The notes under the pieces were generated by a model. It was given only the letters and a program-made list of their open reading frames with translations, did not search any database and had not been told where the DNA came from. Source: a virus (lineage: Duplodnaviria > Caudoviricetes). From it: a DNA stretch of 62,344 nucleotides. The stretch covers positions 1 through 62,344 of the IMG/VR virus record IMGVR_UViG_3300030397_000356, one strand, 5' to 3'. This document shows, in pieces, positions 1 to 44,156 of this stretch (positions within the stretch are counted from its first letter, which is position 1; each line of letters starts with the position of its first letter). Both the position numbers and the translations under genes were made by a program.

Positions 1-3000
1 GTGACAACCGATTCTTTTTTGTCGATTAATTTGAACACATTGGTAGAATCATAGGAGTATGTTATCCCAGCCACTTGTACGTTTTGCCAGTTATCCACAT
101 CTTGAGTCAAAAACTCTATAGTGAAAGCGTTTAGGAAGCGATAATCCAAGCCTTCTGTCGCCAACAGTTTCTGTCCCCCTACCTCATATGTTATTTTTGC
201 GGCGTATGCCGGTTTTGAAAGACGCAGTATCTTGTTCGAGGTCAGTGAGGATATTTCACTAAAATCTATAAAATTTTCAGCATTTTCAATGGTTTCTGTA
301 ACGTCTACATCAAAGAAGTATCCATTATAAGGTCTCAATTCCTCAACAACGTCTGGCAGATCATGCCATCTCGTGTGATCTGACAACCTGATCGGAACGT
401 AGCCCCTACCAATGGGTGCGCCAGTTGGTGGGAGAAATTCAAGACGCAGTTCTTGCCTTACGACATCATCTGTTTTAAGCTTTACTTCTGGGTAAAACTT
501 TTGCTTTCCGTCACCGAAAGAACAGACCCTATATGCCCAAAAATCGTCTATATCCACACCCCTCAACAGCTTATGCCCCATAAACGCATTAAGTGATTTG
601 TCTGTTCCTTTGTTTTGTATGAACCCTTTCCAAAAAATGAATTGAGATTTTGAATCAATGTTTAAATTGATCATATACTCTTTAGGGCCGTCATATCCTA
701 TCGATTTTCTGGAAACCTCATTAGTTGGTCCACCCCGAATACTACTATAAACATCATAATAGTCTCTTATGTCTTGTATAGACTTTTCTATGTTGTTAAT
801 AAGACTATCTTCGTTGATAACAAACCCTCCGACGTTTATACGCCCAAAAGAATCAACTGGTCGTAGATAACTCAAAAACAGCCTTGGAGTCTTCAACCCA
901 AGGAACGGGTCATATATTACTTTCTTTCCTGTCGTATAGTGATTAAATCTGCATATGTGAGTTACTTCAAATATTGAATATACCGCTCCCCCTATTTCCA
1001 ATTTAGAGTTTTCAGTAAGAAGGACATTGGTTTCCGTATCATGTCTGAAAAACAATATGTCACTAAGGTCGATGTAATTGGAGTGTATATCGAAGACATG
1101 ATTTTTTTCAAACATGTTGCTTCTGTCCAGCTTCTCTGGTAAGCCTCTCTCATGGCTTATAACAAAGTGTCTGCGGTATGGATTCATTGTCTTTTCTGGA
1201 AGAACCCGGTCTTCTCTAAAGATTTCAATAACTATCTCACCGGCCCCGGTAGAAAACCTGATATGTTTTCCACTTTTAGCGTTTTGTTCCGTGTAAGCTA
1301 TTTGTATATCCCCGGAGTTGGATACTATGGCATAATAAGGAACAAACGAATTAAACGGACTTGAAAGTTCATCCGGTAATGAGCCTTTTCCTTCTTGACT
1401 TCTCAGTCTTATTTTTTGTCCAGTGCTTAGGAATTTTCCAGAAGGATTCGTAAAAGAGCTTGAAGAAACGTCAACCGTGGCAGTTATTCTGGCTGGCTTT
1501 TCTTCAGCCCTTCTTACAAGCATATCCAGCCAAGAGATGAATTCTTCTAATTCCAACAACCATTCGTTATTTCGGCCTTTGTCTTTTTCGCTCTTATTAG
1601 ACAGATCTTGTGGAACAGAAACTATTCCTCGATCAGCCAACAGAGCTTCATATCCAAAAATAATGTCTATCAGCGACTGTACTCTGGTGACGCTCTGGCC
1701 GTCAAACAGGTCCAACACAAATCTTTTATCCACATCATGTCGTCTAAACCCATAATCTACTTCAGATAGTGGATCAAACGTTGTTAAAACCTTACCTGCC
1801 CAGAAGTTCCCGCTGCCAATAGTAGAAAAGTTCAAAATAGTTCCAGTCAATGCCAGCTCTTCGGTTTCGGCTAGCTGAAAGTCTGTATCGTTAATCTTGA
1901 ACACGTAATATGGTTTGTCTCTCGACAGTGGCTCAGGCAAAACTCCATCAGTGTCTAGATAGACTTCTTGGCCAGTTTCCCAAGGAATTGTTATTACATT
2001 TGATGGGATTACCACACCATCTACTGTGTCGTCCGGGACATTTACAGTCTCCAACACTCGTATTATCGTGTTATTAGTAACGGGAGAGTATTCAACATAA
2101 TCAACAGTGTAAGTACCATTATAATTCGATGATCCCGTTATAGTTATCTGGTCTTGAACTCTAAAATGCTCTAACAAGTTTCCTTGCAGCACGAAAGATT
2201 TTTTGAACACATAGCCCGTATTGCCGGTTGAAGATGTGAACCCAGAAAAGATAGAAGAAAACAACGTATCTGTGGTTACAGAAACCGTAGAAGTTGTTGA
2301 TGTGGTATTGCTTTTTATGACTAAGAATCCGTTTTCAAGATCAACGAACCCGTCAGTGAGTTGGGCATTGATTATATCAATCAATTCTTCAACAGTGGTT
2401 GCGCCGTTGAAAGTTATAGACACCGTGTTAGTTATACTTCCATCAAAAATTATAGTTGATTCATACTGTCCACTCGACACAGCAACGGTATCTCCCAATC
2501 CTATAGGCGATGAATATATCGCTCTCCAAAATCCTCTAGGCGGTTCCAAAGGAACATCCGTTATAGAATAGCTGCCAGTAGTAAAACGGTTTGTTCCAAC
2601 TAGCCTAACCTTATAATTTTGTGGGTGATAGTACTCTACTTTCTTTATCTTTTCAGGGGAATGTACTTTTGCTCTGAATACCCAATTTTTGGTTCCGTAA
2701 TCATCTCTTTCTGTTAAAGGAGCCTTTTTGCTAACTGCCCACGTTATAGCGGAAAATATATTTGACTCGGATCTCAATTTTTTGTCGATAAAAACCTTAT
2801 AGTCTCGGTTGACTATATCAATTTTATCTCCAAAAACGTCCAGTGTTGTGTCATTTATCAAACTGTTGAATACATAAGACGGGAACATCTCCCATCCGGT
2901 CCAAAGCCTCTTGTATTCATCCACCTCATTGTATCTGTTGTAGTTTACTATCCATTGCTGAAGGCCCTGAGACTTGTACAGATCCCCGTTTGTTCTGTAT

Positions 3001-6000
3001 TCTCCATGAAATACTGTTCTATTATGAGGATTGACGTTTTCAGTGTCTTTGTTGACCAGTAGACAATCCACTGACACATAATCATCGCCGTAATTTCTAC
3101 TATAAAACTCTATTGGGTCCAACTGAAACGCCGATTTCAGCAAAAAGTAGAGGTAGTCTGAGCTATTTCGCCACTCCCATTCAGATGGAGCGCCCTTCCC
3201 AAACTCATAGTTGGCATTAGGAGAGGCGATGTGGTCTCCTAAACTCTTGTCGTAAAGCGGCTTAAATCTGCTATCAGGGGATAATGAGCCGTCCCAATAA
3301 GGTGGGGCTAGCCCGTCGGGCTCTATTCCGTTAATAACAGATGATGTTACGTTTACCGGAACATATTGAAATACTTGTGTCTCTCCGGGAGATTGTGAAG
3401 ATATGTTCACCCCGTCCGGTAAAACCTCTCCTGCCGGGACAACACCGTCAAATATGTTATCCCACATTTCGTCTTTCCAATAGCGATTAACGTTTGGATC
3501 TGTATTCAAATAAGTATCTTTCCACCATGCAGGCTCTTCAGAGTATCCCTGCAATACCCAAGGCTCCCTATGTGGAAATGCCGTTCCATACACGTCTTCA
3601 TACAACGCTTGCCAAGATGATTTATTTCTAGGCCATAAACCTCCAGTGAGCGGATGAGATTGAATGTCGGTGAATCCATAATTCCACGTGAATGGGTTAG
3701 TCGGGTCAAAATCGGCATTTGTTAAAGTCCCTTCCCCCACTCTTGAAAAGAATTCATCTCTTTCTTTTTTTGCAAACTTCGGGTTTGATGTTGTTTTGTT
3801 GAGATCGTAAAAATACTTCAAAGGCTGATTCAATATCGCGGCATCATACAAGTTTTTCTCTATAAGGTACAATGCCTTTGCCAGCTTTTCCACAACATCT
3901 ATTTCAACCCAGACACCTGATTGCAATCTGTAAAGATAGATATCTTTTGTTTCTATCACACCCCTTATCAAATAATCTCCTTCATTGTAGTTAGAAGGAC
4001 TTGGGAAGCTGTCTGCTGTTGAAGAAACCCGTTGGGTGTTTTGAGTCAACAAAGCATAAAAGTTAGCTTTATGTGTCGGTGTTATAACAATTCTTGAATA
4101 TGTCCCATCATGCCGTTTTATGGTCCATGCTCCGTCTACATCCTTAAACACTTGAGGGACCGACGGGTCTGTCATCCTCAACATAGCTGAGGTAGACACC
4201 CAATTTTTTATCCCCACATCGCCTACGGAGCTAAAAGAATCTCCAAATATTCTATCTAGCCTCACATCGCTTTCAATCTTTTCTTTCAGGTCTTCAAAGA
4301 CCTCATCGATTGAAGAGTCAATAAATGATGGAAGATTTTTCAGATATGCAATAATAATATCATATACAATATTATCGTATGCTTCGGCCACAAATTCTAT
4401 CGCTTTCGGAACACTAGTATTTTTGGAGAGTATGGCCGAGGCCAGAAGATCAAGCCTTCCATTGTGTTCTTTTATAGTACCACCCACTCCCATGTTTGGA
4501 TTTTTTACCGCATGGAAAAAGTCTTCAGATGGTAATTCTGCCGAATACTTCTTGGACTGTTGCGACATTGTAATAGTTTTGAAATGCCTAAAAACTTCAG
4601 ACAAGCTCAAAGACTTTCTAAGATCATGTGCTATATTGAATTTCCAATTATTTGGAATGTCCCAATAGTCTCCCACTTTTTTGGGAACCGATTGCTCGTA
4701 ATTGTTCCCCCGTCTCCATATCGATTTAATAGTGGAGTCTCTAAGGTCTAAATAGCATATGAGTTTGTCATTCTCATCGACTAGGCCGTGTTCAAAAACA
4801 AGATCTTTTGGATTTCTGTTATATTCTATTCTTCTATTAAGAATCGTATTTAGTGTAAAATCCCCGTTTTCTTTGAACCAAAAAATCGGGTTACAGTCGT
4901 CAAGCTGATTGCCATGGATGTCATATAATTTGAAAAACGGGTACTCGTTAACACCGGATAGAGTTTGTTCAATCTTTTTGTACCTGCTCAGGTTATACGT
5001 GTCAGTATTACCATACGGGTCTATTACAGTGACGGCTCTTCTGCCTATATCGTCGCTCCAATATTCGCCTAATTCTATTCGTACAACAGTTTCTTCATCT
5101 ATCGTGATGTCGTTATCGAAAATTATTCCAGAGATATAACCGTTTGATCGAAGCTCATAAAATTTTCCATACATGCGCCGACCATCTATGTATACCCTGA
5201 TGTCTCCCTCTTGCCAGTCTTCCGCTAGACACAAATCATGAAGGGAAGAGTCCAGTTCTATTTTGGCACCACTATACGAAGCAAGGGGATTAAACTCTTG
5301 CCAATATAATCCAATTTTTGTCAAATATTGATGATTAAGGTCACTGACAGAAATCCCTTGAGACACCGACGGTCCCAGAAGCATCGGGTTTATTTCAGGT
5401 TCAACGCTTGTTGGTGTTATATTCCCTATCCCTAAAAAAGCCCAATGGTTCGCCGCTGGATCGTAAATATCTCCTAACGCGGTCAAATGTGGATATATCG
5501 TTCCACCACCATCAGCTTCATAGATAAAAGAGGACTCATCTCCCACCGCCAAAAACAGGCTCGCTATTGTTATAACAGTATTCCACCTAGAGCCCTGTTC
5601 ATATTCGACGAATTCTATATCTTCTATCGTATATTGTCCGTCATTGTTTGTAAATCCAACAAGGTTTATCTTGTCACCCGGCTTTAAATATGGTGTTAGG
5701 TTGCCAAATTTTTCTGGGATAACTATCTTGTTCCCCGAATTTAGAAACACCGGCCTAGAATTGTCGTTCGGTATCTGGATTGGTTGGATTTCTAATAAAG
5801 ACGGCTCAACGTCTGTTTCTATATAGCCTTCAGAAGACGTTGCTCGGTATGCCCATCTGTATGTGAATTTAGAAAATTCTGATAATTCCACATAGTCTTC
5901 ATATTCTATGATAGGCTGTAGAGCTTGACGCTTGCCGGAAAAATTGTTTATTTGGTTTTTATGAACCCATTTATTGCTTTCTATCCAATCATTTGTGTCT

Positions 6001-32410: not shown

Positions 32411-32456
32411 TCAATATAGATAAATAGCAATATAAATACATCAACATAGGAGATTA

Positions 32457-32906
32457 ATGGCGATGAACATTGAAGAATTTGGGAAGAAATTTCTTAAAGC
32501 TTGGGGAACGACTGAAAATTTGAAAGAAATGGAATCTGACGAGTTAAGTCAAATGCGAAAAGAGTTAGATGAAGTTTTTTCATCTTATCTCACCGAAAAG
32601 ATGGCAAAAATAATTGTCGAGGACCACGAGAAAAGAATGACAGCGAGCGAAATGTCGGCTCATATAATAAAGCTATTCAGAATGTGTCCGAATCGTGACG
32701 TGGAAAAAGAATTTTTATCTATTGTGGCAGATGCTACAGACAGAGAGGAATGCACAGAGAAAGATTTACCGGAATGTGCAAGAGTGTTATGCAACAATGA
32801 TGAAGAAGAGTGTGACGATGTGATCCATAAGCTTGAGTCTTTGGTCAAATACAACGAGCCAGAGGCGGACGACGATGGTGACGAAGAAGAAAAAGACGCA
32901 GAATGA
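32457..32906 (+). CDS. Hypothetical acidic head-cluster protein
   Basis: AGGAG RBS; tandem late promoters at 32419-32426 and 32431-32438. Confidence 0.7.
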   Translation: MAMNIEEFGKKFLKAWGTTENLKEMESDELSQMRKELDEVFSSYLTEKMAKIIVEDHEKRMTASEMSAHIIKLFRMCPNRDVEKEFLSIVADATDREECTEKDLPECARVLCNNDEEECDDVIHKLESLVKYNEPEADDDGDEEEKDAE

Positions 32907-35704: not shown

Positions 35705-37114
35705 ATGGACAGACAATTACTTACAGAAAAATGGGCTGACGTGCGCGAGGCTCTTTTGGATGGACTCAATGGTACACTACGTGAAAACGTCGAGGTACTG
35801 CTAGAAAACCAAAGACGTGAAATACTAAAAGAAACTGCTCCGGCGGGATCTATAGAGGCTCACGATATCGCTAATTATCGTCACACCCTTCTACCAATGA
35901 TACGTCGTATCATACCGGGAACCATCGGCACTGAGATTGTCGGTGTACAGGCAATGGACGGCCCCGTTGCCCAAGTCTACACAATGAGATATGTGTATGA
36001 AGAAGAAATGAATGCTCCGGCAGGGTTTGAAGGAAATCCCTTTGGGGGCTTCGATATCTCACCCGGAGATGAAGCGTTCGGCAACGACAGACCGATTAGA
36101 CGGTTTTACGCTGGATCTACTGGCTCGGCTCAGTTGGCGGGTGCTTCTGGAATCGCCAACCCTAATGCGGCTGAAGCTGACATCGATGTTGGACCAGCTA
36201 CCGGCGAAGGTTGGGAGTCTTCAAGAGACGCTACTACCTATGAGACAGGAACAACTCTTTATGGTAACCCTGTCGGCGGATCTCTGCTAGGTGGTTCAGG
36301 TAGCTTCTTGGAAGGTTCCGGCGGTCGTAAAATGACTCTGAGAGTCGTTTCACAGACCGTTGAAGCTAAATCTAGGAAGCTACAGGCTGGCTGGACTCTT
36401 GAAGCCATGCAGGACGCCAAGAACGGACATGGGCTTGACATCGAAACGGAGATGACAAAAGGGCTTACAGCCGAAATCGTTCAGGAGATCGATGCCGAGA
36501 TCATAGGAGACCTTTTGGCTCTTGCTGGAACGGTTCGAACGTTTGACTATAACAACACGGGCGGTCCTACCTATGCACCAGCTTTTGCCGGTGACAGGTT
36601 TGCCAACCTTGGGGTTAGAATAACTGAGGTTGCGAACGAGATCGCCAGAAAGACGCGCAGAGGCGCAGGTAATTTTATAGTTGCTTCGCCAATGATGGTC
36701 AGCGTGCTAACCAGTGCGGCTAAAGCGGTGTTCGCTCCAGCAGTTCAGGGCTCATTCAAAGGCCCTAACAACACCGAGCTAGTTGGAACTCTGAACGGGA
36801 CCATCAAAGTGTATAACTATCTGTGGAATCAGGCGCAGTCATTGGACGCTCTGAGCGCAGGTGCTGGTGGCGGTGCCGACAGAATTCTAGTCGGTTACAA
36901 GGGTGGAAACGGTGAAACCGATACTGGGTATTGGTATACTCCGTACATTCCGGTCACGAGTACCGGCGTCATTATGAATCCGGTAACGACTACGCCGATG
37001 ATAAGCTTGATGACCCGCTACGGCAAGCTGGCCTTGACTGATCCAACGACATCGTTGGGCAACTCGGCTGATTATTACGGTAAAATCAATGTTGTTAACC
37101 TAGACTTCGTTTGA
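35705..37114 (+). CDS. gp23: Major capsid protein gp23
   Basis: EIVGVQAMDGP, VEAKSRKLQAGWTLEAMQD, TRRGAGNFIVAS, YTPYIP, LMTRYG. Confidence 0.97.
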   Translation: MDRQLLTEKWADVREALLDGLNGTLRENVEVLLENQRREILKETAPAGSIEAHDIANYRHTLLPMIRRIIPGTIGTEIVGVQAMDGPVAQVYTMRYVYEEEMNAPAGFEGNPFGGFDISPGDEAFGNDRPIRRFYAGSTGSAQLAGASGIANPNAAEADIDVGPATGEGWESSRDATTYETGTTLYGNPVGGSLLGGSGSFLEGSGGRKMTLRVVSQTVEAKSRKLQAGWTLEAMQDAKNGHGLDIETEMTKGLTAEIVQEIDAEIIGDLLALAGTVRTFDYNNTGGPTYAPAFAGDRFANLGVRITEVANEIARKTRRGAGNFIVASPMMVSVLTSAAKAVFAPAVQGSFKGPNNTELVGTLNGTIKVYNYLWNQAQSLDALSAGAGGGADRILVGYKGGNGETDTGYWYTPYIPVTSTGVIMNPVTTTPMISLMTRYGKLALTDPTTSLGNSADYYGKINVVNLDFV

Positions 37115-37132
37115 TAACATACCGTTGATCGA

Positions 37133-37161
37133 CAAAAAACCCCCGCGTGCGGGGGTTTTTT
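37133..37161 (+). terminator. Rho-independent terminator after gp23 (bidirectional appearance)
   Basis: AAAAAACCCCCGC-GT-GCGGGGGTTTTTT. Confidence 0.9.
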
Positions 37162-37222
37162 GTTTTAATGGCACACCGTAATGTGCACATGATAAATAGA
37201 TTAAAACGCATAGGAACGTTCT

Positions 37223-37561
37223 TTGACCAAGCTCTCTTTTTCTGAATACTATAAAAGTAAACAACAGTTGTTGGAGAAAGCTGAAGAGACCCCACGAGTG
37301 TATTCGTTGTATGAGATGAAATCATACAAACGTGTTCCCGTTTCCAAAACTTTGGAAGATCAAGAAGAAAAAATCTACATTAACCTCAAACCGAAAGACA
37401 GGATAAAAATTTTGTGGGAATATGAAGACATCTACCGACCAACTGCTAGAATATTTGTTGTAGTGCACGAAGATGGATCTCAAGACCATTATATACCCAA
37501 GTGGAGTAATAAAAAAATGCTTCATTGGGTTTTATCTAACGCTAAAGAGTTAGACGTTTGA
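37223..37561 (+). CDS. Hypothetical late protein
   Basis: 112-aa ORF with TTG start; GATAAATA at 37191-37198. Confidence 0.65.
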   Translation: MTKLSFSEYYKSKQQLLEKAEETPRVYSLYEMKSYKRVPVSKTLEDQEEKIYINLKPKDRIKILWEYEDIYRPTARIFVVVHEDGSQDHYIPKWSNKKMLHWVLSNAKELDV

Positions 37562-37628
37562 GAAGATTCTCTTAAAAGGTAAAAAAGCCCCCATATAGAT
37601 AAATACTAGAGAGCACAATGGGGCATTT

Positions 37629-38384
37629 ATGGATATTTTCTCGCATTTATGGGGCTTACTGATAAGATCAGATAATAGTCCCATATACCTTGCTACGCTA
37701 GTTTTAATAGCCAGTTCTTTATATTTTTTCATAAAAAGCAAGATAGAAATCTGGGCATATCAAAAAAAAGATGACGTTAGAAGACGCCGCTCAATAGATG
37801 TGGACGCAGAGATAAAGGAACTGAAGAACTCATCATTTTTTAACTATTTGAAATTTAAGTTAAATGTAAAACTATATGTTAACAAGTTTTCAGATGATCC
37901 CGGAATAGACCTGCTATACAAGGATCTTTTGAGGATGTTGTTAACATCTTTTTATACTACGTTTAACGAGCGGGTTGATAGATTGAAATTTCTTCAGTCG
38001 GATAAGGAGTTCGAAACACATTGGCATTCGGCATTAAATGAAACACTTGAGAATTTTTCCCTATCCTGTGACAAAGAAGGAATCTCGGACATTGCCAAAG
38101 TCAGTTTTTTGGCTTGGGTTTCTCCATTCATCACCGAACTTTATAAGTTCATATCAGATATTTCTAGGACTGAAATAAACATATACAATAAGACTCGGCT
38201 GTTGTTATTAAGTGCGGAAATGGTTTTGGTTATAGCGGTTGGACAGTTGAAAGTTAAAGAGATATTTAATGGGCGGCTAAAGGGCCTTGAATATAAAGGG
38301 ATGATTCTTGGAAAAGATCAGAGAAAGGCTGACGCATATGAAGATGGTCAAAAAAAAAATAGAAAATTTCCGTTAAGTGGCTAA
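37629..38384 (+). CDS. Late membrane protein, possible holin (single N-terminal TM plus soluble domain)
   Basis: IYLATLVLIASSLYFFI hydrophobic helix; GATAAATA at 37598-37605; holin function is a guess from topology. Confidence 0.5.
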   Translation: MDIFSHLWGLLIRSDNSPIYLATLVLIASSLYFFIKSKIEIWAYQKKDDVRRRRSIDVDAEIKELKNSSFFNYLKFKLNVKLYVNKFSDDPGIDLLYKDLLRMLLTSFYTTFNERVDRLKFLQSDKEFETHWHSALNETLENFSLSCDKEGISDIAKVSFLAWVSPFITELYKFISDISRTEINIYNKTRLLLLSAEMVLVIAVGQLKVKEIFNGRLKGLEYKGMILGKDQRKADAYEDGQKKNRKFPLSG

Positions 38385-38397
38385 AGTCTTAGATTAT

Positions 38398-38560
38398 GTG
38401 AACTACCCATTTGCTAAAGACAAATGGGCTTCGGACTTCGCAGATAGTTGAGTATTACTACTTCTTACACCATCTCCATCCGTGTAATCGACTGTCCCAG
38501 CCGATATTATTTTCAATCCTTCTTTCAGAATGTTCTTTGCTGCATTTAAATCACGGTCTA
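38398..38560 (-). ncRNA. TnpB omega (re)RNA scaffold overlapping the tnpB 3' end
   Basis: Expected position at the IS right end with terminal hairpin; 5' boundary approximate; guide would be the flank ATAATCTAAGACTTTAGCCA. Confidence 0.65.
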
Positions 38561-39593
38561 ATTTATGTCCATTTTTGCAAGTCCATTCACGAACCGAAAG
38601 ATTTAAATCTTGATTTATCCATCCACACACATTACAAGTTTTGCTTGAAGGGTAAAAGCGATTGATTTTAACAACTTGTTTATCGTTCCAATCTGCTTTG
38701 TACTCCAAGAATCTCACAAATGTACCCCAACTTGCATCTGCAATGTGTTTTGATAATTTTCTATTGCTCATCATTCCCTTTACATTAAGGTCTTCCAAAG
38801 CAATTATGTCATAATCAGAAACAAGTTGATGCGATACCTTATGCAATACATCTTGTCTTGTGTTGGATATTTTCTCGTGTATTTTGGCAACTTTTCGTTT
38901 TTGTCTTTCAAACGAATTGCTGCCTTTTTGCTTACGAGAAAGATGTTTTTGTGCTTTCGCTAAATCTCTTTCATATTTCTTGGTATATCTGTTATTCTTG
39001 AATTTGATGCCGTCAGAAGTAATGGCAAAATCTTTCAAACCTAAATCTATTCCGCAAACAGCACCAGTTTTTTCTTTTGGCTGATATTGTTCTTCAGTTA
39101 AAATTGAAACATAGTATCTTCCAGTCGGTGTTTTAGTAAAGGTCATTTTGCCAACATTGCCCTTTATTTCACGGTGAACAATACATTTAATCCCTTCTTT
39201 GAATTTTGGAACGTAAATTCTACCATCAACCAATTTTGTGTGTTGTGGTACTGTGAATCTGTTCTTTCTTTTCTTTGATTTAAATCTTGGGAACTTGGCA
39301 TTGCCACGAAAGAAGTTAAGGTATGCAGTATCCAAAGACCTTAAAGCAAATTGCAGGGTTTGACTGTTTACTTCTTTAAGCCAAACAGTTTCCTCTTGCT
39401 TTTTTAATTCAGTCAAAGTTTTTGCTTGAGCATAGTAGTTGTCAGACTTCTTGTTTGCCTGATACTGTTCTTTACGCTCATTCAGAAAGTAATTGTAAAC
39501 AAAACGTGTTGCACCAAAGTGTTTATTTAAAAGAATTGTTTGTTCTTTGTTAGGTTTTAACTCAAATTTGTATGTTCTGTGAATTTTACGCAT
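38403..39593 (-). CDS. tnpB: RNA-guided endonuclease TnpB
   Basis: N-terminal HRTYKFELKP...FGATRFVYN; RuvC D (GIDLG), E (IALEDL), D (DRDLNAAKNI) all present; zinc-ribbon SSKTCNVCG. Confidence 0.97.
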   Translation of the reverse strand: MRKIHRTYKFELKPNKEQTILLNKHFGATRFVYNYFLNERKEQYQANKKSDNYYAQAKTLTELKKQEETVWLKEVNSQTLQFALRSLDTAYLNFFRGNAKFPRFKSKKRKNRFTVPQHTKLVDGRIYVPKFKEGIKCIVHREIKGNVGKMTFTKTPTGRYYVSILTEEQYQPKEKTGAVCGIDLGLKDFAITSDGIKFKNNRYTKKYERDLAKAQKHLSRKQKGSNSFERQKRKVAKIHEKISNTRQDVLHKVSHQLVSDYDIIALEDLNVKGMMSNRKLSKHIADASWGTFVRFLEYKADWNDKQVVKINRFYPSSKTCNVCGWINQDLNLSVREWTCKNGHKLDRDLNAAKNILKEGLKIISAGTVDYTDGDGVRSSNTQLSAKSEAHLSLANG

Positions 39594-40278
39594 ATCTGAA
39601 CTTTAAACCATTTGCTGTTTTATATTCACCAGTACACACTCGATTTATAGATGACCTATGAACATTGAGTTCATCAGAAGCCTCTTTAATTGAGGTAAAT
39701 TTGTTTATTACATTACCCCTATCATCTATTTGTTCAACTGAACGTTTATGACGTTCAAAATTAAAACCCCAAGTTTCAGTTTCTAAATGACAGTCATAAC
39801 AAAGTGTTCTGCCATTGCTCACATCCCAAAGGTCTTTACAAGAGATTGCTTCTTCAATAGAAGATATATTATTGTCTTCAACGATTTTAGATAATGGGAT
39901 TATGTGGTCACAATTCAAAATAATTCTATTCCCTTTTTGTCTTTTAGAACCACATTTCTGACAAGTATAATTATCCCTATCATAAACCTTAGTTCTCCAA
40001 ATAGAATATTCGGGCAATTTTCTTATTTTGTTCTTTAGTTTGACTGTACCACCTTTCCAGTTCCAAGCATTTTCACCAGAGATTTTCTCTAAAAATCTTT
40101 TTTGTTTTTTACTTTCGCCACGACTTCTTATCGGGATACTATTCTTTTTGAGAAGTTTTCTGACACTTGAAACATCAATTGAAAACATCTGTGCTAATTC
40201 AGTAGTGCTATACCCTTTTTGATATTTACTGCAAATATCAATTCTTTCTTGTTCTGTTAATTTATAAGGTCTTGCCAT
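39586..40278 (-). CDS. HNH homing endonuclease with N-terminal HTH and C-terminal NUMOD1-like domain
   Basis: GENAWNWKGG; RDNYTCQKCG...DHIIP...NGRTLCYDCH; VEQIDDRGNVINKFTSIKEAS...INRVCTG..KTANGLKFRY. Confidence 0.9.
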   Translation of the reverse strand: MARPYKLTEQERIDICSKYQKGYSTTELAQMFSIDVSSVRKLLKKNSIPIRSRGESKKQKRFLEKISGENAWNWKGGTVKLKNKIRKLPEYSIWRTKVYDRDNYTCQKCGSKRQKGNRIILNCDHIIPLSKIVEDNNISSIEEAISCKDLWDVSNGRTLCYDCHLETETWGFNFERHKRSVEQIDDRGNVINKFTSIKEASDELNVHRSSINRVCTGEYKTANGLKFRYA

Positions 40279-40285
40279 TACTATA

Positions 40286-40375
40286 CTACTTATTCACGAA
40301 GTGTTTATCCAGCAACACTTTTTGGTCTTGTGTTGGTCTTAATTCAAAGCGATATGTCCTGTGTATTGTTTTCAT
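40286..40375 (-). pseudogene. tnpB: Orphaned 5' stub of tnpB (29 aa)
   Basis: Reads MKTIHRTYRFELRPTQDQKVLLDKHFVNK*; colinear with MRKIHRTYKFELKPNKEQTILLNKHF of the intact TnpB. Confidence 0.9.
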
Positions 40376-40391
40376 GTTTACAAATATACTA

Positions 40392-40399
40392 TATTTATA
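40392..40399 (-). promoter_or_regulatory. Late promoter TATAAATA inside the IS, upstream of stub-HNH-tnpB
   Basis: TATTTATA on +, 17 nt upstream of the stub ATG. Confidence 0.65.
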
Positions 40400-40407
40400 C
40401 TAAATAC

Positions 40408-40460
40408 GCAAGTTTTTGTAAAAGTTCCGTCTTTGGGTAAAAACTTTCACAAAAACTTGC
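40408..40460. repeat. Inverted repeat upstream of tnpA
   Basis: GCAAGTTTTTGT ... ACAAAAACTTGC, ending 6 nt before the tnpA ATG. Confidence 0.8.
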
Positions 40461-40466
40461 TTCGTT

Positions 40467-40883
40467 ATGTCTAAAAAATCACAGTACATTTCTTCTACAA
40501 ATCGTTCAAAGCATTATCTCAAGTGCCATCTTATTTTTGTCTGCAAGTACCGTAAAAAGTTGCTTGTTGGTCAGTTAAAAGATGATATGCGTTCTATTCT
40601 TTTAAACATTACTTCTAATTCAGATTTTGAAATTGAAGTCTTTGAATCTGATTTAGACCACATTCACTTTCTTATTCGCTACATTCCTCGTTTATCCATT
40701 ACTTCAATAGTTCGTAAGTTAAAACAAGAATCTGCCTATCACATTTGGCGTTCATCTCACAGGTCATTCTTATTTAAACATTTTTGGAAAGAACACACTT
40801 TTTGGTCAGATGGTTATTTCGTTTGCTCAATTGGTGAGGCTTCTCCTGATACCATTCGTGAGTATATTCTCAATCAGGGCTAG
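40467..40883 (+). CDS. tnpA: IS200-family Y1 (HUH) transposase TnpA
   Basis: HLIFVCKYR, DHIH (HUH), FWSDGYF, IREYILNQ (catalytic Tyr). Confidence 0.96.
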   Translation: MSKKSQYISSTNRSKHYLKCHLIFVCKYRKKLLVGQLKDDMRSILLNITSNSDFEIEVFESDLDHIHFLIRYIPRLSITSIVRKLKQESAYHIWRSSHRSFLFKHFWKEHTFWSDGYFVCSIGEASPDTIREYILNQG

Positions 40884-40931
40884 TCGCTTACATCCCACAA
40901 ACTAAAGATTTGTGGGTTTTACGCTCCGTTT

Positions 40932-40939
40932 TATAAATA
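40932..40939 (+). promoter_or_regulatory. Late promoter TATAAATA for the neck gene, spanning the IS junction
   Basis: Exact consensus ending 25 nt upstream of ATG 40965. Confidence 0.75.
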
Positions 40940-40964
40940 CTTCAGAAGAAAGAAAGCTTTTCTA

Positions 40965-43900
40965 ATGGGAATATTTGACTCTTTTAATGATACCCCGAGT
41001 CAGATAAAGTTTGAAGGTCAAGAAATTGATCTAAAATTTATCAGGCTAGACGATAACACAGGAAAACTCACTTGGAATATACCACCGTCTATAGACGGGT
41101 GTTCTGGTGATGGTGTTTATGATGGGATAGTTTTAACAGTTAGTAGAAAACCAGCCGACTATCAAACCACGTCGCCTAAAGATGGACAATATTACATAGG
41201 AGATCCGACTGTTGATCCAGATTTACATTCTGGGAGCAAGATCACAGATGACGTTCTAGTTGTTGGAGCGTTTTATAATGACAGAGAAACTACAGAGTTA
41301 GAAATTACCGATTTACAGCCTAGAACAGCCTACTATTTTTCAGCCTATGCTGTTGATAACGTGGCTAGATATCACAGAGAAGGAGTGCATTCATATTCTT
41401 TACCGACTGGTCCAGAAGAAGGTCCAGAGGATGAAGAAACCAGTGCAGAACAAGCTATAAAGCTAGAGGATGAAATAAGATTAACACAATCAACCGGACT
41501 CAATGCGGACAGTGTTTATGATTTGAAATTGAACATCAATGATTGCGAGTACACTATTGAAATACTGGGGAGTAGTGCTCGAACATATGAATCTTTGATA
41601 AAATCCATCAACAAACAGTTGACTTTTTTGGAGGATGGTATATATCAAAGCCCTACATATCCATATAATGAAACTGTTTGGACCGACGGCACATCTTTTT
41701 ATTTTTGGGATGGACAAAACAAGACAACCTTAGATGTCATTAAAAATGATATAGCACCAAATTTGCTTCCATCTGACACGCTTTGGTATGACACGGACGA
41801 TAAGATATTGTATCGCTATAACGGCCCTCTCGTTAGTGCCGGGACCGAATGGTCAGAGCTTGAACATATAACTTACCAGTTTGATATAACAAAGCCTAAA
41901 TCCGGACAAATATGGTTTAATCCTGCGACCGGTGTTGCTAGAATAAGAAAAAACAAAACATGGTGTAAAATTAATGCGGTGGTTTCATCAAGAAATCCTT
42001 TACTTCCTCAAATAGACACGGACGAGTGCGCTTATTGGTACAACACCGAGACTGGCTCTCTAAGCATGTTGAACATTGACTCAAAAACATGGGAAGATAT
42101 TGACGCAATATACTTTAACAAAGATCCTAACGATTTTGATGTTGGAGATTATTGGTACAATGACCAAGAGGATAAACTTTACGTTTTGCAGTCTGGATTA
42201 GATTGGTTTCACGTGAAACACCTGCTAGTAGAAGAAGTTGACTCTTCACTTACTCAAAGATTGATATATCGATTTGTAAAAGATGAAAGAAATCTGTACG
42301 TGTGGAACACATCACTGAATGTATGGGATAGAACCCCGGTTATTATTAATAATGTTGATCCAAATGCTGATGATTCAGTACAAGATGCCACTTTGGGAGA
42401 TTTTTGGTTTGATGACGAAGACGAGATACTATATCGACTTGAGTCTAGTGGATGGGTTAAGAAAGATAATGTTGTAGTTGAAGAGACCAATTCATACATT
42501 GATTCACCATATGACATAAGATATGCTAAAGACTCTCAACGACTGTATGAGTGGTCTTCAATAACGCTTTCGTGGGAAGAGCTTCCAGTGGCTGTTTTTC
42601 CTTCAGATCCGAGAGACAGGGAGTCTTGCCAATATTGGTGGGACTCAATTTCGGACAAGCTGTTCATATGGGACGATCTGAATGGAGAGTGGGTTGAGGT
42701 TGATTTGTTTTTACAACAGAGCACGGACCCTCTAGCTCCCCAAAAACTTCCAGAAAACACAATATGGTATAATCCGGAAACAGGATCTGTCTTGAAAATT
42801 CTCTCAACCTCGTGTGAAGAAGTCGAGGCTGTAGTTGAGGAATTTGACCCAACTAATCCTCCACCGGATCTTTATTGGCTTTTCGATGGAAAATTCTTTT
42901 TGTATTCTGAAAGTCTTGGAGAGTGGGTAGAAGTATCAAACCAACCGATATTCTCAGACACTGACCCTACAATCGTAAACGTGGGAACGTACTGGTTCAG
43001 CCAGACGATATCAAAACTGTTTAGATGGGATGGGGCCAATTGGGTCGAAGTCCAATTTCAACTGAAAGACCCTAAACCAGATGAAGGCTTTTTGTGGTAT
43101 AACACTGTTAGCGAGAAGTTGTATCGTTGGAACATCGACAAATGGGTGGAGGAACTTCCGATTGCTTATGTAGAATTCGTTAAAGGGTCTAAATGCGGCG
43201 AAAAACACGATAAGTTTGTGTTCAAAACGCGAAAAAAGGGATGCGATGCCATCATAGAAATAATGCGCTCAAACAACAATGTGTTTGGGGAGATAAACGT
43301 CCCCGTGCGTTATTGCCTTTCAAGGCCGGGACAGGATATACAGCGCAAAGGGCCTATGCATTCTGTCATTGGAGTCGGAGACGACGGTAGTCCTGACGAG
43401 CGAAGAGATTTACACAGACGTATACGAGAGTTACTAGGAGAGCCATCCACCAAAGTTGAATTAACGAAGCGTCAAATCGACACATGTATCGACAATGCGA
43501 TACAAATGTTACGCAAATATTCCGGATATGCTTACACTAGAGGACTGTTTTTTCTAGACTTGCGTAGAAATCAACAGACTTATGAACTAGTTGACAAATG
43601 CGTTGGCTTCAATAAGATTGTAAAGGTTTATAATGTCTATAAGTCTAGAAAGCATTTTTGGACTGGATCGAGCATCAATAATGATATCTTAGGCTATGCC
43701 GCACTACAACAGCTTTATCATATGGGCAAATTTGATATCTTAAGCTACCATCTGGTTTCTTCATATCTCGAAGAGTTGGAACATATTTTTGCTTCAAAGC
43801 TACGTTTTCAATGGAGCGAGTATAGTAGAGAGTTGAAGTTTTACAACAGTATTGATGTAGACCAAAGAGTTTTGGTTGATGCTTCTTTAGAGCGACCAGA

Positions 43901-44156
43901 ACAACAGTTAATTACTGATCGGAATACTTCGATGTGGCTGCAAAAATGGGCATTGGCCGAAGCGAAAATGATGCTATCTCAGGGACGTGGAAAATATCAA
44001 TCTTTGCCCGGACCTTCTGGCAGCACTGTGTTAAACGCGCAAGAGCTTATTACACAATCCGAAGCGGAAAAGGCGGCATTACTAGAAGAATTATATGACG
44101 TGTCAATGTGGGCCGGGGAAGAAGTAGGGCAAGACGTTTATTTTGTTATGGGGTAA
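40965..44156 (+). CDS. gp13: Neck protein gp13-like with large N-terminal repeat extension
   Basis: C-terminal RELLGEPSTKVELTKRQIDTCID...WLQKWALAEAKMMLSQGRGKYQSLPGP; N-terminal FN3-like segment and Trp-rich repeats. Confidence 0.85.
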   Translation: MGIFDSFNDTPSQIKFEGQEIDLKFIRLDDNTGKLTWNIPPSIDGCSGDGVYDGIVLTVSRKPADYQTTSPKDGQYYIGDPTVDPDLHSGSKITDDVLVVGAFYNDRETTELEITDLQPRTAYYFSAYAVDNVARYHREGVHSYSLPTGPEEGPEDEETSAEQAIKLEDEIRLTQSTGLNADSVYDLKLNINDCEYTIEILGSSARTYESLIKSINKQLTFLEDGIYQSPTYPYNETVWTDGTSFYFWDGQNKTTLDVIKNDIAPNLLPSDTLWYDTDDKILYRYNGPLVSAGTEWSELEHITYQFDITKPKSGQIWFNPATGVARIRKNKTWCKINAVVSSRNPLLPQIDTDECAYWYNTETGSLSMLNIDSKTWEDIDAIYFNKDPNDFDVGDYWYNDQEDKLYVLQSGLDWFHVKHLLVEEVDSSLTQRLIYRFVKDERNLYVWNTSLNVWDRTPVIINNVDPNADDSVQDATLGDFWFDDEDEILYRLESSGWVKKDNVVVEETNSYIDSPYDIRYAKDSQRLYEWSSITLSWEELPVAVFPSDPRDRESCQYWWDSISDKLFIWDDLNGEWVEVDLFLQQSTDPLAPQKLPENTIWYNPETGSVLKILSTSCEEVEAVVEEFDPTNPPPDLYWLFDGKFFLYSESLGEWVEVSNQPIFSDTDPTIVNVGTYWFSQTISKLFRWDGANWVEVQFQLKDPKPDEGFLWYNTVSEKLYRWNIDKWVEELPIAYVEFVKGSKCGEKHDKFVFKTRKKGCDAIIEIMRSNNNVFGEINVPVRYCLSRPGQDIQRKGPMHSVIGVGDDGSPDERRDLHRRIRELLGEPSTKVELTKRQIDTCIDNAIQMLRKYSGYAYTRGLFFLDLRRNQQTYELVDKCVGFNKIVKVYNVYKSRKHFWTGSSINNDILGYAALQQLYHMGKFDILSYHLVSSYLEELEHIFASKLRFQWSEYSRELKFYNSIDVDQRVLVDASLERPEQQLITDRNTSMWLQKWALAEAKMMLSQGRGKYQSLPGPSGSTVLNAQELITQSEAEKAALLEELYDVSMWAGEEVGQDVYFVMG

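Follow-up and report, generated by a model that had tools for sequence, protein, structure and literature searches.

The IMG/VR record IMGVR_UViG_3300030397_000356, a stretch of 62,344 bp from a virus of the Caudoviricetes (referred to here, at its full length, as the window), corresponds to approximately 18% of a phage genome according to the CheckV estimate. An insertion sequence (IS) of the IS200/IS605 family, 2,535 bp long and present in the record as a single copy, occupies positions 38398 to 40932, with the minus strand as its top strand. It is flanked by an upstream open reading frame (ORF) and by a neck-protein gene, and it directly adjoins the late-promoter core of the latter, ATAAATA (40933 to 40939, plus strand), which lies 25 nt before the ATG and is preceded by the last base of the IS, the T at 40932. 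An earlier note on this DNA had proposed that the IS targets the phage late promoter and rebuilds it on insertion. The comparisons described below confirm the observation and partly support its interpretation: this is a known kind of element at a convenient, not specially chosen, site.

The two transposon genes are divergent, an IS605-like layout. The tnpA gene (40467 to 40883, plus strand) encodes a Y1 HUH transposase of 138 residues (Pfam Y1_Tnp, E 5e-32, residues 16–137), in which the HIH motif and the C-terminal tyrosine were identified by eye. The tnpB gene (38403 to 39593, minus strand) encodes an apparently intact protein of 396 residues with the Pfam domains OrfB_IS605, Cas12f1-like_TNB and HTH_OrfB_IS605. 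In ISDra2 of Deinococcus radiodurans tnpA and tnpB are co-oriented, whereas those of the window are divergent. The ISDra2 TnpB (structures 8bf8, 8h1j and 8exa) is the closest solved natural TnpB, with residues 7–393 aligned and the same triad. In the match to 8bf8 and 8h1j (E 4e-81), D183, E267 and D348 are the counterparts of D191, E278 and D361, the last of which we take to be the third residue of the ISDra2 RuvC triad. The ISDra2 variants D191A and E278A are described as dead (Karvelis 2021, PMC8612924).

The left end (40894 to 40932, minus strand) contains the conserved CGTAAAACCC and a hairpin at 40894–40916 that covaries across loci. The tetranucleotide AAAA directly 5´ of this hairpin (40917–40920, minus strand) is a putative left DNA guide, by analogy with IS608; a further 12 nt separate it from the cleavage point, which falls after 40933 on the minus strand, and the left target TTAT is 16 nt away from the foot of the hairpin. 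The right end (38398 to 38505, minus strand) overlaps the 3´ end of tnpB and comprises a hairpin at 38406–38428, a putative DNA guide GAAG 5´ of it (38429–38432, minus strand; again by analogy with IS608) and the cleavage motif TCAC (38398–38401), which terminates the element 8 nt beyond the hairpin. Both terminal hairpins covary across loci, the element lacks terminal inverted repeats as well as a target-site duplication, and the flanks (TTTAT| and |ATAATC) are mutually unrelated. The presence of a Y1 transposase, end hairpins, a fixed target and a fixed right-end motif places the element in the IS200/IS605 family, and the positions of AAAA and GAAG would, by analogy, fit its DNA-guide rule. 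The right-end guide of IS608 is GAAT. As described for IS608/IS605 of Helicobacter pylori, these elements share with the window IS the Y1 transposase and the end hairpins, and their cleavage sites are read by 4-nt DNA guides 5´ of the hairpins, to which AAAA and GAAG would correspond; where IS608 has TTAC/AAAG and TCAA, the window has TTAT/AAAA and TCAC/GAAG in the same places, the left pair showing a matching change at the fourth position, while the distances are 16 and 8 nt instead of 19 and 10 nt and the window target is a pentamer (He 2011, PMC3201880).

The boundaries of the element were fixed by comparison with related copies. A protein-seeded scan of IMG/VR yielded 93 TnpB relatives, of which 80 loci with 58–98% identity were kept; the 42 viral loci with both ends, together with the window, make up 32 unique sites. 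The right end reads ...GTAGTTCAC in every related copy in which it was found (29 viral loci by BLAST, as well as the regular-expression matches and genome contigs), with unrelated flank beyond it, and ends in GTTCAC at 32/32 unique sites, using a regular expression that permitted C or T as the last base. The first base of the IS is A at 26 of these viral sites, T at 5 and C at 1. Moreover, contigs from four public metagenome runs (X1–X4) in which other flanks lead into the IS ends part from the window at 38396–38399 and at 40932/40937, with ATAAA in common. Viral copies, genome flanks and contig breaks thus agree on the limits 38398 and 40932 given in the earlier note.

The target, which would also serve as the transposon-associated motif (TAM), is TTTAT on the minus strand, directly 5´ of the left end (40933 to 40937; ATAAA on the plus strand). 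The earlier note had named this pentamer, and it precedes the left end at 31 of the 32 unique viral sites, the window included, with GTTAT at the remaining one, and at all 21 unique left-end flanks from genome or metagenome-assembled genome (MAG) contigs. The left-end regular expression demanded TTAT, and a BLAST-anchored listing without that demand gave the same result. The scan of prokaryotic genomes returned 53 loci, mostly of Bacteroidota (a Flavobacteriales MAG at 88%, Sphingobacterium, Algoriphagus, Saprospiraceae and others), and the IS family is at home mainly in Bacteroidota genomes and their phages. TTTAT has been validated as the TAM of ISGst2 TnpB2 by chromatin immunoprecipitation sequencing, TAM libraries and interference (Meers 2023 preprint, 10.1101/2023.03.14.532601). 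ISGst2, from Geobacillus stearothermophilus, is thus an IS200/IS605 element with the same TTTAT, a likeness drawn from the target and TAM and not from the TnpB sequence; it resides in a bacterial chromosome, whereas the window IS resides in a phage.

The sequence against which the IS abuts is a recurrent element of the phage. ATAAATA occurs 25 times in the window against 19.5 expected, which is not above chance; 18 of the 25 copies sit 19–43 nt upstream of a gene start on the same strand, and 15 copies outside the IS fall within the intergenic 4.4% of the window, as defined by a crude ORF map. The extended form TATAAATA is found on the coding strand, a short distance ahead of an ORF, in 10/10 copies. 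Across 18 phage promoters no conservation is detected upstream of the core, the preceding base being T in 7, G in 8, A in 3 and C in none. This placement, combined with the lack of upstream conservation, indicates that ATAAATA behaves as a late promoter of the T4 type in this phage. Promoters of that type have a -10 element resembling TATAAATA, set a constant short way ahead of late genes, and lack a -35 element. At 32420–32438 (plus strand), two ATAAATA cores 12 nt apart (GATAAATA, then TATAAATA) stand ahead of an ORF that begins at 32457, and may form a tandem late promoter.

IS-free relatives show what the site looks like when unoccupied. A search with the single neck-protein sequence retrieved only one relative, while a scan seeded with a two-sequence alignment reached 8 neck-gene loci, which fall into three distinct sequence groups and are all IS-free. 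Their neck proteins are 61–62% identical over the full length at six loci and 69–70% identical over the first 40–42 residues at the other two. In these relatives a homologous upstream ORF is followed by a short spacer and then by TATAAATA, GATAAATA or AATAAATA, and the ATAAATA core lies exactly 25 nt ahead of the neck ATG in the three groups and in the window alike. In the window, ...CTTAGATTAT leads up to 38397 and ATAAATAC... begins at 40933; the earlier note had joined these two flanks into an empty site. The insertion point and the promoter are confirmed by this comparison, because the relatives keep N-ATAAATA 25 nt before the ATG.

The idea that the IS rebuilds the promoter is not supported. 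The T at 40932 does complete TATAAATA together with 40933–40939, as had been noted. However, the IS is cut in at the 5´ edge of the 7-mer and leaves the core unsplit, and the T that it supplies is unnecessary, because T, G and A all precede the core, both in the promoters of this phage and in the IS-free relatives.

The proposal that the IS targets late promoters is not borne out by the other copies of the family. An ATAAATA context, recognized by TATTTAT ahead of the left end, was found at 6 of the 32 unique viral sites, compared with 214 of 2001 TTTAT occurrences (10.7%) in the same flanks (binomial p=0.12), and at 2 of the 21 genome sites. This lack of enrichment is the outcome that the earlier note had itself named as speaking against its claim. 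Among the six viral sites, the window alone clearly has a gene start at promoter distance. At locus L059 an ORF of at least 60 residues starts 50 nt from the junction and at L063 only short ORFs follow, both doubtful as promoters, and at L003, L005 and L013 no gene start lies at promoter distance behind the junction. The contigs of L003 and L005 have 25–26% G+C and contain 13 chance copies of ATAAATA each in the flanks. In general, the flanks of other IS loci show the late-promoter pattern scarcely at all, and the family resides mostly in Bacteroidota genomes, where an ATAAATA promoter is meaningless.

Around 23 of the 32 insertions are intergenic by a crude ORF test. Outside the IS the window holds 318 TTTAT sites, of which 37 are intergenic, and 15 of these (about 40%) are ATAAATA cores. 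Supposing that insertions persist only outside genes, the prior for a late-promoter site is about 40%. The suggestion that every late promoter offers a potential safe intergenic site therefore holds for this phage.

The reading that best accommodates these data is that an ordinary IS200/IS605 element sits at its standard TTTAT target, with the promoter position as a neutral by-product of that target and not the result of any promoter-seeking; we regard this as probable. An IS carrying tnpA and tnpB would have entered the jumbo phage by the standard single-strand mechanism of the family, inserting 3´ of a TTTAT that pairs with bases one to five of ATAAATA, and would so have come to abut the unsplit core. 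The neck gene would keep its promoter whatever base the IS supplies, because the phage's late promoters show no conservation ahead of the core and tolerate T, G or A at the preceding base, and the insertion would be close to neutral. Target specificity, combined with the loss of insertions within genes, would be enough to produce such a site.

The right end of the IS also holds a predicted guide-RNA scaffold. The last 108 nt show a conserved structure across 22 diverse copies, in which 25 base pairs are paired in 95.8% of cases as opposed to 27–42.5% when the pairing is slid. Compensatory changes occur at 14 pairs, and the observed values were reached by 0/500 shuffles. The G–U pairs lie on the tnpB-sense strand, as expected of an omega RNA (ωRNA), and the terminal right hairpin, which is part of this covarying structure, also serves as the DNA substrate for TnpA. 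A search of Rfam (E<=1) over 36000–43000 returned no ωRNA or intron family, with only weak terminator-like matches near 37080–37240. For ISDra2 it has been described that a guide RNA of around 150 nt overlaps the 3´ end of tnpB and the right end, with a 16-nt guide from the flank, that the guide is drawn from the 16–20 nt past the right end, and that the TAM is TTGAT, as compared with TTTAT in the window (Karvelis 2021, PMC8612924). By analogy, the guide of the window IS would consist of the 16–20 nt past its right end, and the right-end flank at 38378 to 38397 (minus strand) would be the template of a predicted 20-nt guide that is its reverse complement, as the earlier note had read directly from the sequence.

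An ωRNA ending 16–20 nt past the right end, combined with a TTTAT TAM, would recognize the empty site by the established TnpB mechanism, and such recognition would help the IS to be retained or to be copied into near-identical genomes that lack it. The element looks functional, with an intact tnpA, a complete RuvC triad and a conserved and structured ωRNA region, and cutting of the empty site by TnpB is plausible given the intact triad and the covarying right end. In ISGst2, TnpB cuts the donor joint, made up of the TAM and the right-end flank, and thereby raises transposon retention (Meers 2023 preprint, 10.1101/2023.03.14.532601). The homing among co-infecting phages proposed in the earlier note is a direct application of known TnpB biology; it would be plausible for near-identical IS-free phages, by analogy with such systems, and is implausible for the relatives at 62% identity, whose sequence at this position mismatches the guide. 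In the window, the final codons and the stop of the upstream ORF fall within the predicted TnpB target.

The tnpB gene has itself been invaded. A nested cassette of 802 bp (39495 to 40296, minus strand) substitutes for 20 nt of the HNH-free form and contains, according to profile searches, an ORF for a homing endonuclease with HNH and NUMOD domains (39586–40278, minus strand), whose stop overlaps the tnpB ATG. The cassette also includes tnpB codons 1–33 in a recoded second version (39495–39593, minus strand), which specifies a similar peptide although its DNA matches no locus at more than 70% identity. Upstream of the cassette, the original 5´ end of tnpB persists as a remnant of 29 codons (40286 to 40375, minus strand), formed by 26 tnpB codons, then three codons and a stop; it differs from the 5´ end of L003 tnpB by 3 mismatches across 81 aligned nt. 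The HNH-free form is represented by L003, which is 98.6% identical to the window over the left part of the IS (1–636) and 94.8% identical over tnpB, and by a contig of run X4 with the joint 39494->40297. The HNH gene of the window is present in 0 of the other 80 viral tnpB loci, and neither tnpA nor tnpB occurs in the 80 viral loci that encode proteins related to this HNH protein, at up to 51% identity. An interpretation of the insert as a group I intron was rejected, as no intron model matches it and a recoded tnpB duplicate is found instead of splice-compatible exons.

Elsewhere in the family, other endonuclease genes are found within tnpB or next to it. In L201 an ORF at 2291–2998 combines GIY-YIG and I-HmuI NUMOD-like domains, with a C-terminal domain 43% identical to that of the window HNH protein. 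In L070 an ORF of 349 residues at 816–1865, with weak Phage_endo_I/DUF1064 similarity, splits tnpB at the RuvC glutamate, and a second ORF of 194 residues at 2266–2850 is HNH-like by eye, with no Pfam match. This repeated invasion of tnpB by endonucleases is the less expected observation of the region; it was not met in literature searches, which were aimed at other questions. The nested cassettes suggest that tnpB is itself targeted by other selfish genes in phage communities.

The metagenome contigs provide a view of the element in its community. In X1–X3 the right flank (40948–42400, within the neck gene) exceeds both the left flank (36900–38397) and the IS interior three- to fourfold in summed contig depth, which suggests several strains with a common neck gene that differ upstream. 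Short contigs in the same three runs fuse 38398–38523 to 40822–40932, omitting 2,298 nt, at depths of 2,194–5,077 compared with 118–437 for the IS interior. These fused ends suggest that abundant miniature derivatives of the two IS ends exist in the same community.

Several other explanations of the locus have to be weighed against an ordinary insertion. The IS family might instead be adapted to late promoters, seeking TATAAATA, restoring the promoter by its terminal base and homing by TnpB into IS-free co-infecting phages. This would agree with the TTTAT inside the promoter complement, the TATAAATA formed at the junction, the first base A (T on the promoter strand) in 26 of the 32 viral copies, the ATAAATA context at 3 of the 10 unique sites of the closest copies and the apparently intact TnpB and ωRNA region, and plasmids offer a demonstrated analogue, a gene drive based on TnpB (Mears 2025 preprint, PMC11870625). 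It is nevertheless improbable: promoter enrichment is not significant in phages or in genomes, the ATAAATA sites of L003 and L005 lie in A+T-rich contigs full of chance motifs with no gene behind the junction, bacterial genomes share both the TTTAT target and the terminal A (17/21 copies), bases other than T are found ahead of the core, and the 62%-identity relatives mismatch the guide. An assembly artefact, in which a repeated IS was misplaced between phage segments not truly joined through it, is the least credible of the alternatives and very improbable. Contigs do break at both IS ends in three runs, the ends reach 10–40 times the interior depth and the flanks differ in depth; but the flanks are syntenic neighbours in all of the IS-free relatives, the junctions show the exact form of the family (TTTAT|left end, right end|flank), short contigs from each flank enter the IS ends (X1 record 2 and X2 record 14, less than 31 nt inside) and the interior depth equals that of the left flank.

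A more serious alternative is that the IS is now a passenger. The HNH cassette would have severed tnpB from its start and promoter, so that TnpB is made little or not at all, no guide-directed retention or homing takes place and the position is simply harmless. The exchange of 20 nt for 802 nt with a 29-codon remnant of the old 5´ end left behind points in this direction, as do the related copies L070 and L201, in which tnpB is split or truncated by other endonuclease genes. Against this, tnpB keeps a full reading frame in which the N-terminus has been renewed by the recoded segment and the ATG overlaps the HNH stop, an arrangement more like translational coupling than decay, and the catalytic triad is retained. 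We consider the passenger explanation possible, although on balance unlikely.

Some points weigh against the preferred reading of an ordinary, neutral and still functional insertion. The expression of tnpB is uncertain, as the HNH cassette separates the gene from its original start and promoter. The enrichment test had low power, with 32 sites and few host contigs that seem to use ATAAATA promoters; a preference limited to phages with such promoters is possible, and the test could not be confined to them, since too few such loci were found. Sites were classed as coding or intergenic by a crude ORF heuristic. The three- to fourfold depth gap between the flanks indicates that strain mixtures are present. 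Lastly, the empty-site joint 38397->40933 was not seen in the contigs of the four metagenome runs, a result that is uninformative either way, as contigs lose rare variants. Exact-word scans with both flanks likewise gave no near-identical IS-free genome: the 25-nt left-end flank word has no exact match in IMG/VR, and the 21-nt right-end flank word, found in five JGI metagenome contigs (L216–L220), was dismissed as a chance match, as these contigs form one unrelated family with different surroundings.

The IS is a clean and well-delimited element in a poorly known jumbo phage, and its exact ends, target and TAM, guide and three empty-site relatives make it a natural test case. IS200/IS605 elements have been described in virulent phages before: ISCaje1-4 occur in the T4-like Campylobacter phages CP220 and CPt10, at sites that vary among relatives, although they belong to another IS lineage and host, and the available text of that report draws no link to late promoters or TnpB guides (Timms 2010, PMC2853527). 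In the plasmid gene drive, the insertion site reprograms TnpB to cleave IS-free multicopy replicons, which is what the proposed homing would require (Mears 2025 preprint, PMC11870625). That drive concerns plasmids; a limited literature search found nothing comparable for co-infecting phages, and no link between IS605 targets and phage late promoters.

If TnpB did convert IS-free co-infecting phages, RNA-guided transposon drive would extend from chromosomes and plasmids to viruses, and the motif overlap would explain how a sequence-specific IS colonizes genomes that are 95% coding, with cores making up about 40% of the intergenic targets. There is a modest chance that phage populations are affected by the promoter overlap and by homing through TnpB. 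A broader scheme can be imagined, in which late-promoter cores, each containing the TTTAT landing motif and still working after insertion, act as built-in neutral docking sites in phages with T4-type promoters, TnpB, with a guide copied from the end of the adjacent gene, cuts the unoccupied promoters of co-infecting sister phages and converts them as an RNA-guided gene drive, and endonuclease invasion of tnpB adds a third layer of conflict; as a whole this is improbable and is put forward tentatively.

Within the IS, a further TATAAATA lies at 40392 to 40399 (minus strand), 16 nt ahead of the old tnpB start. It is confined to the closest copies (L002, L003, L006, L073 and L077), while other copies have TATAAAAG and similar sequences. 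A role as a late promoter of tnpB was rejected, given its spacing of 16 nt as opposed to the 19–43 nt of the phage and its restriction to the closest copies; it is probably part of the IS's own promoter. In the region 40380–40400 (minus strand) it adjoins TATATTTG, which resembles the Bacteroidota -7 promoter motif TAnnTTTG. This agrees with an IS family found mainly in Bacteroidota and hints at the host of the phage. On the opposite strand, a long hairpin (GCAAGTTTTTGT...ACAAAAACTTGC, 40418–40463, plus strand) was recognized by eye in the tnpA leader, just ahead of the ATG, and recalls the translational occlusion known in IS200.

Regarding the neighbouring genes, profile searches identify a T4-like structural module in the window, with a portal, a prohead protease and a gp23-type capsid protein. 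The ORF upstream of the IS (37629 to 38384, plus strand) encodes 251 residues and matches phrog_18926 (E 1.8e-11), with no function assigned; in the IS-free relatives the end of the homologous ORF (..EYKG..) likewise precedes the neck promoter. The neck, or head–tail adaptor, gene (40965 to 44156, plus strand; 1,063 residues) matches phrog_211 (E 3e-210), and its nearest GenBank relatives, at 38% identity, are from the Xanthomonas jumbo phages Xoo-sp13 and XacN1. A megablast search of 37600–41900 against GenBank phages gave no match. Directly after the capsid gene, at 37130–37165 (plus strand), there is a strong terminator-like hairpin, with a G+C-rich stem followed by a T run, which accounts for all of the weak "leader" matches to Rfam.

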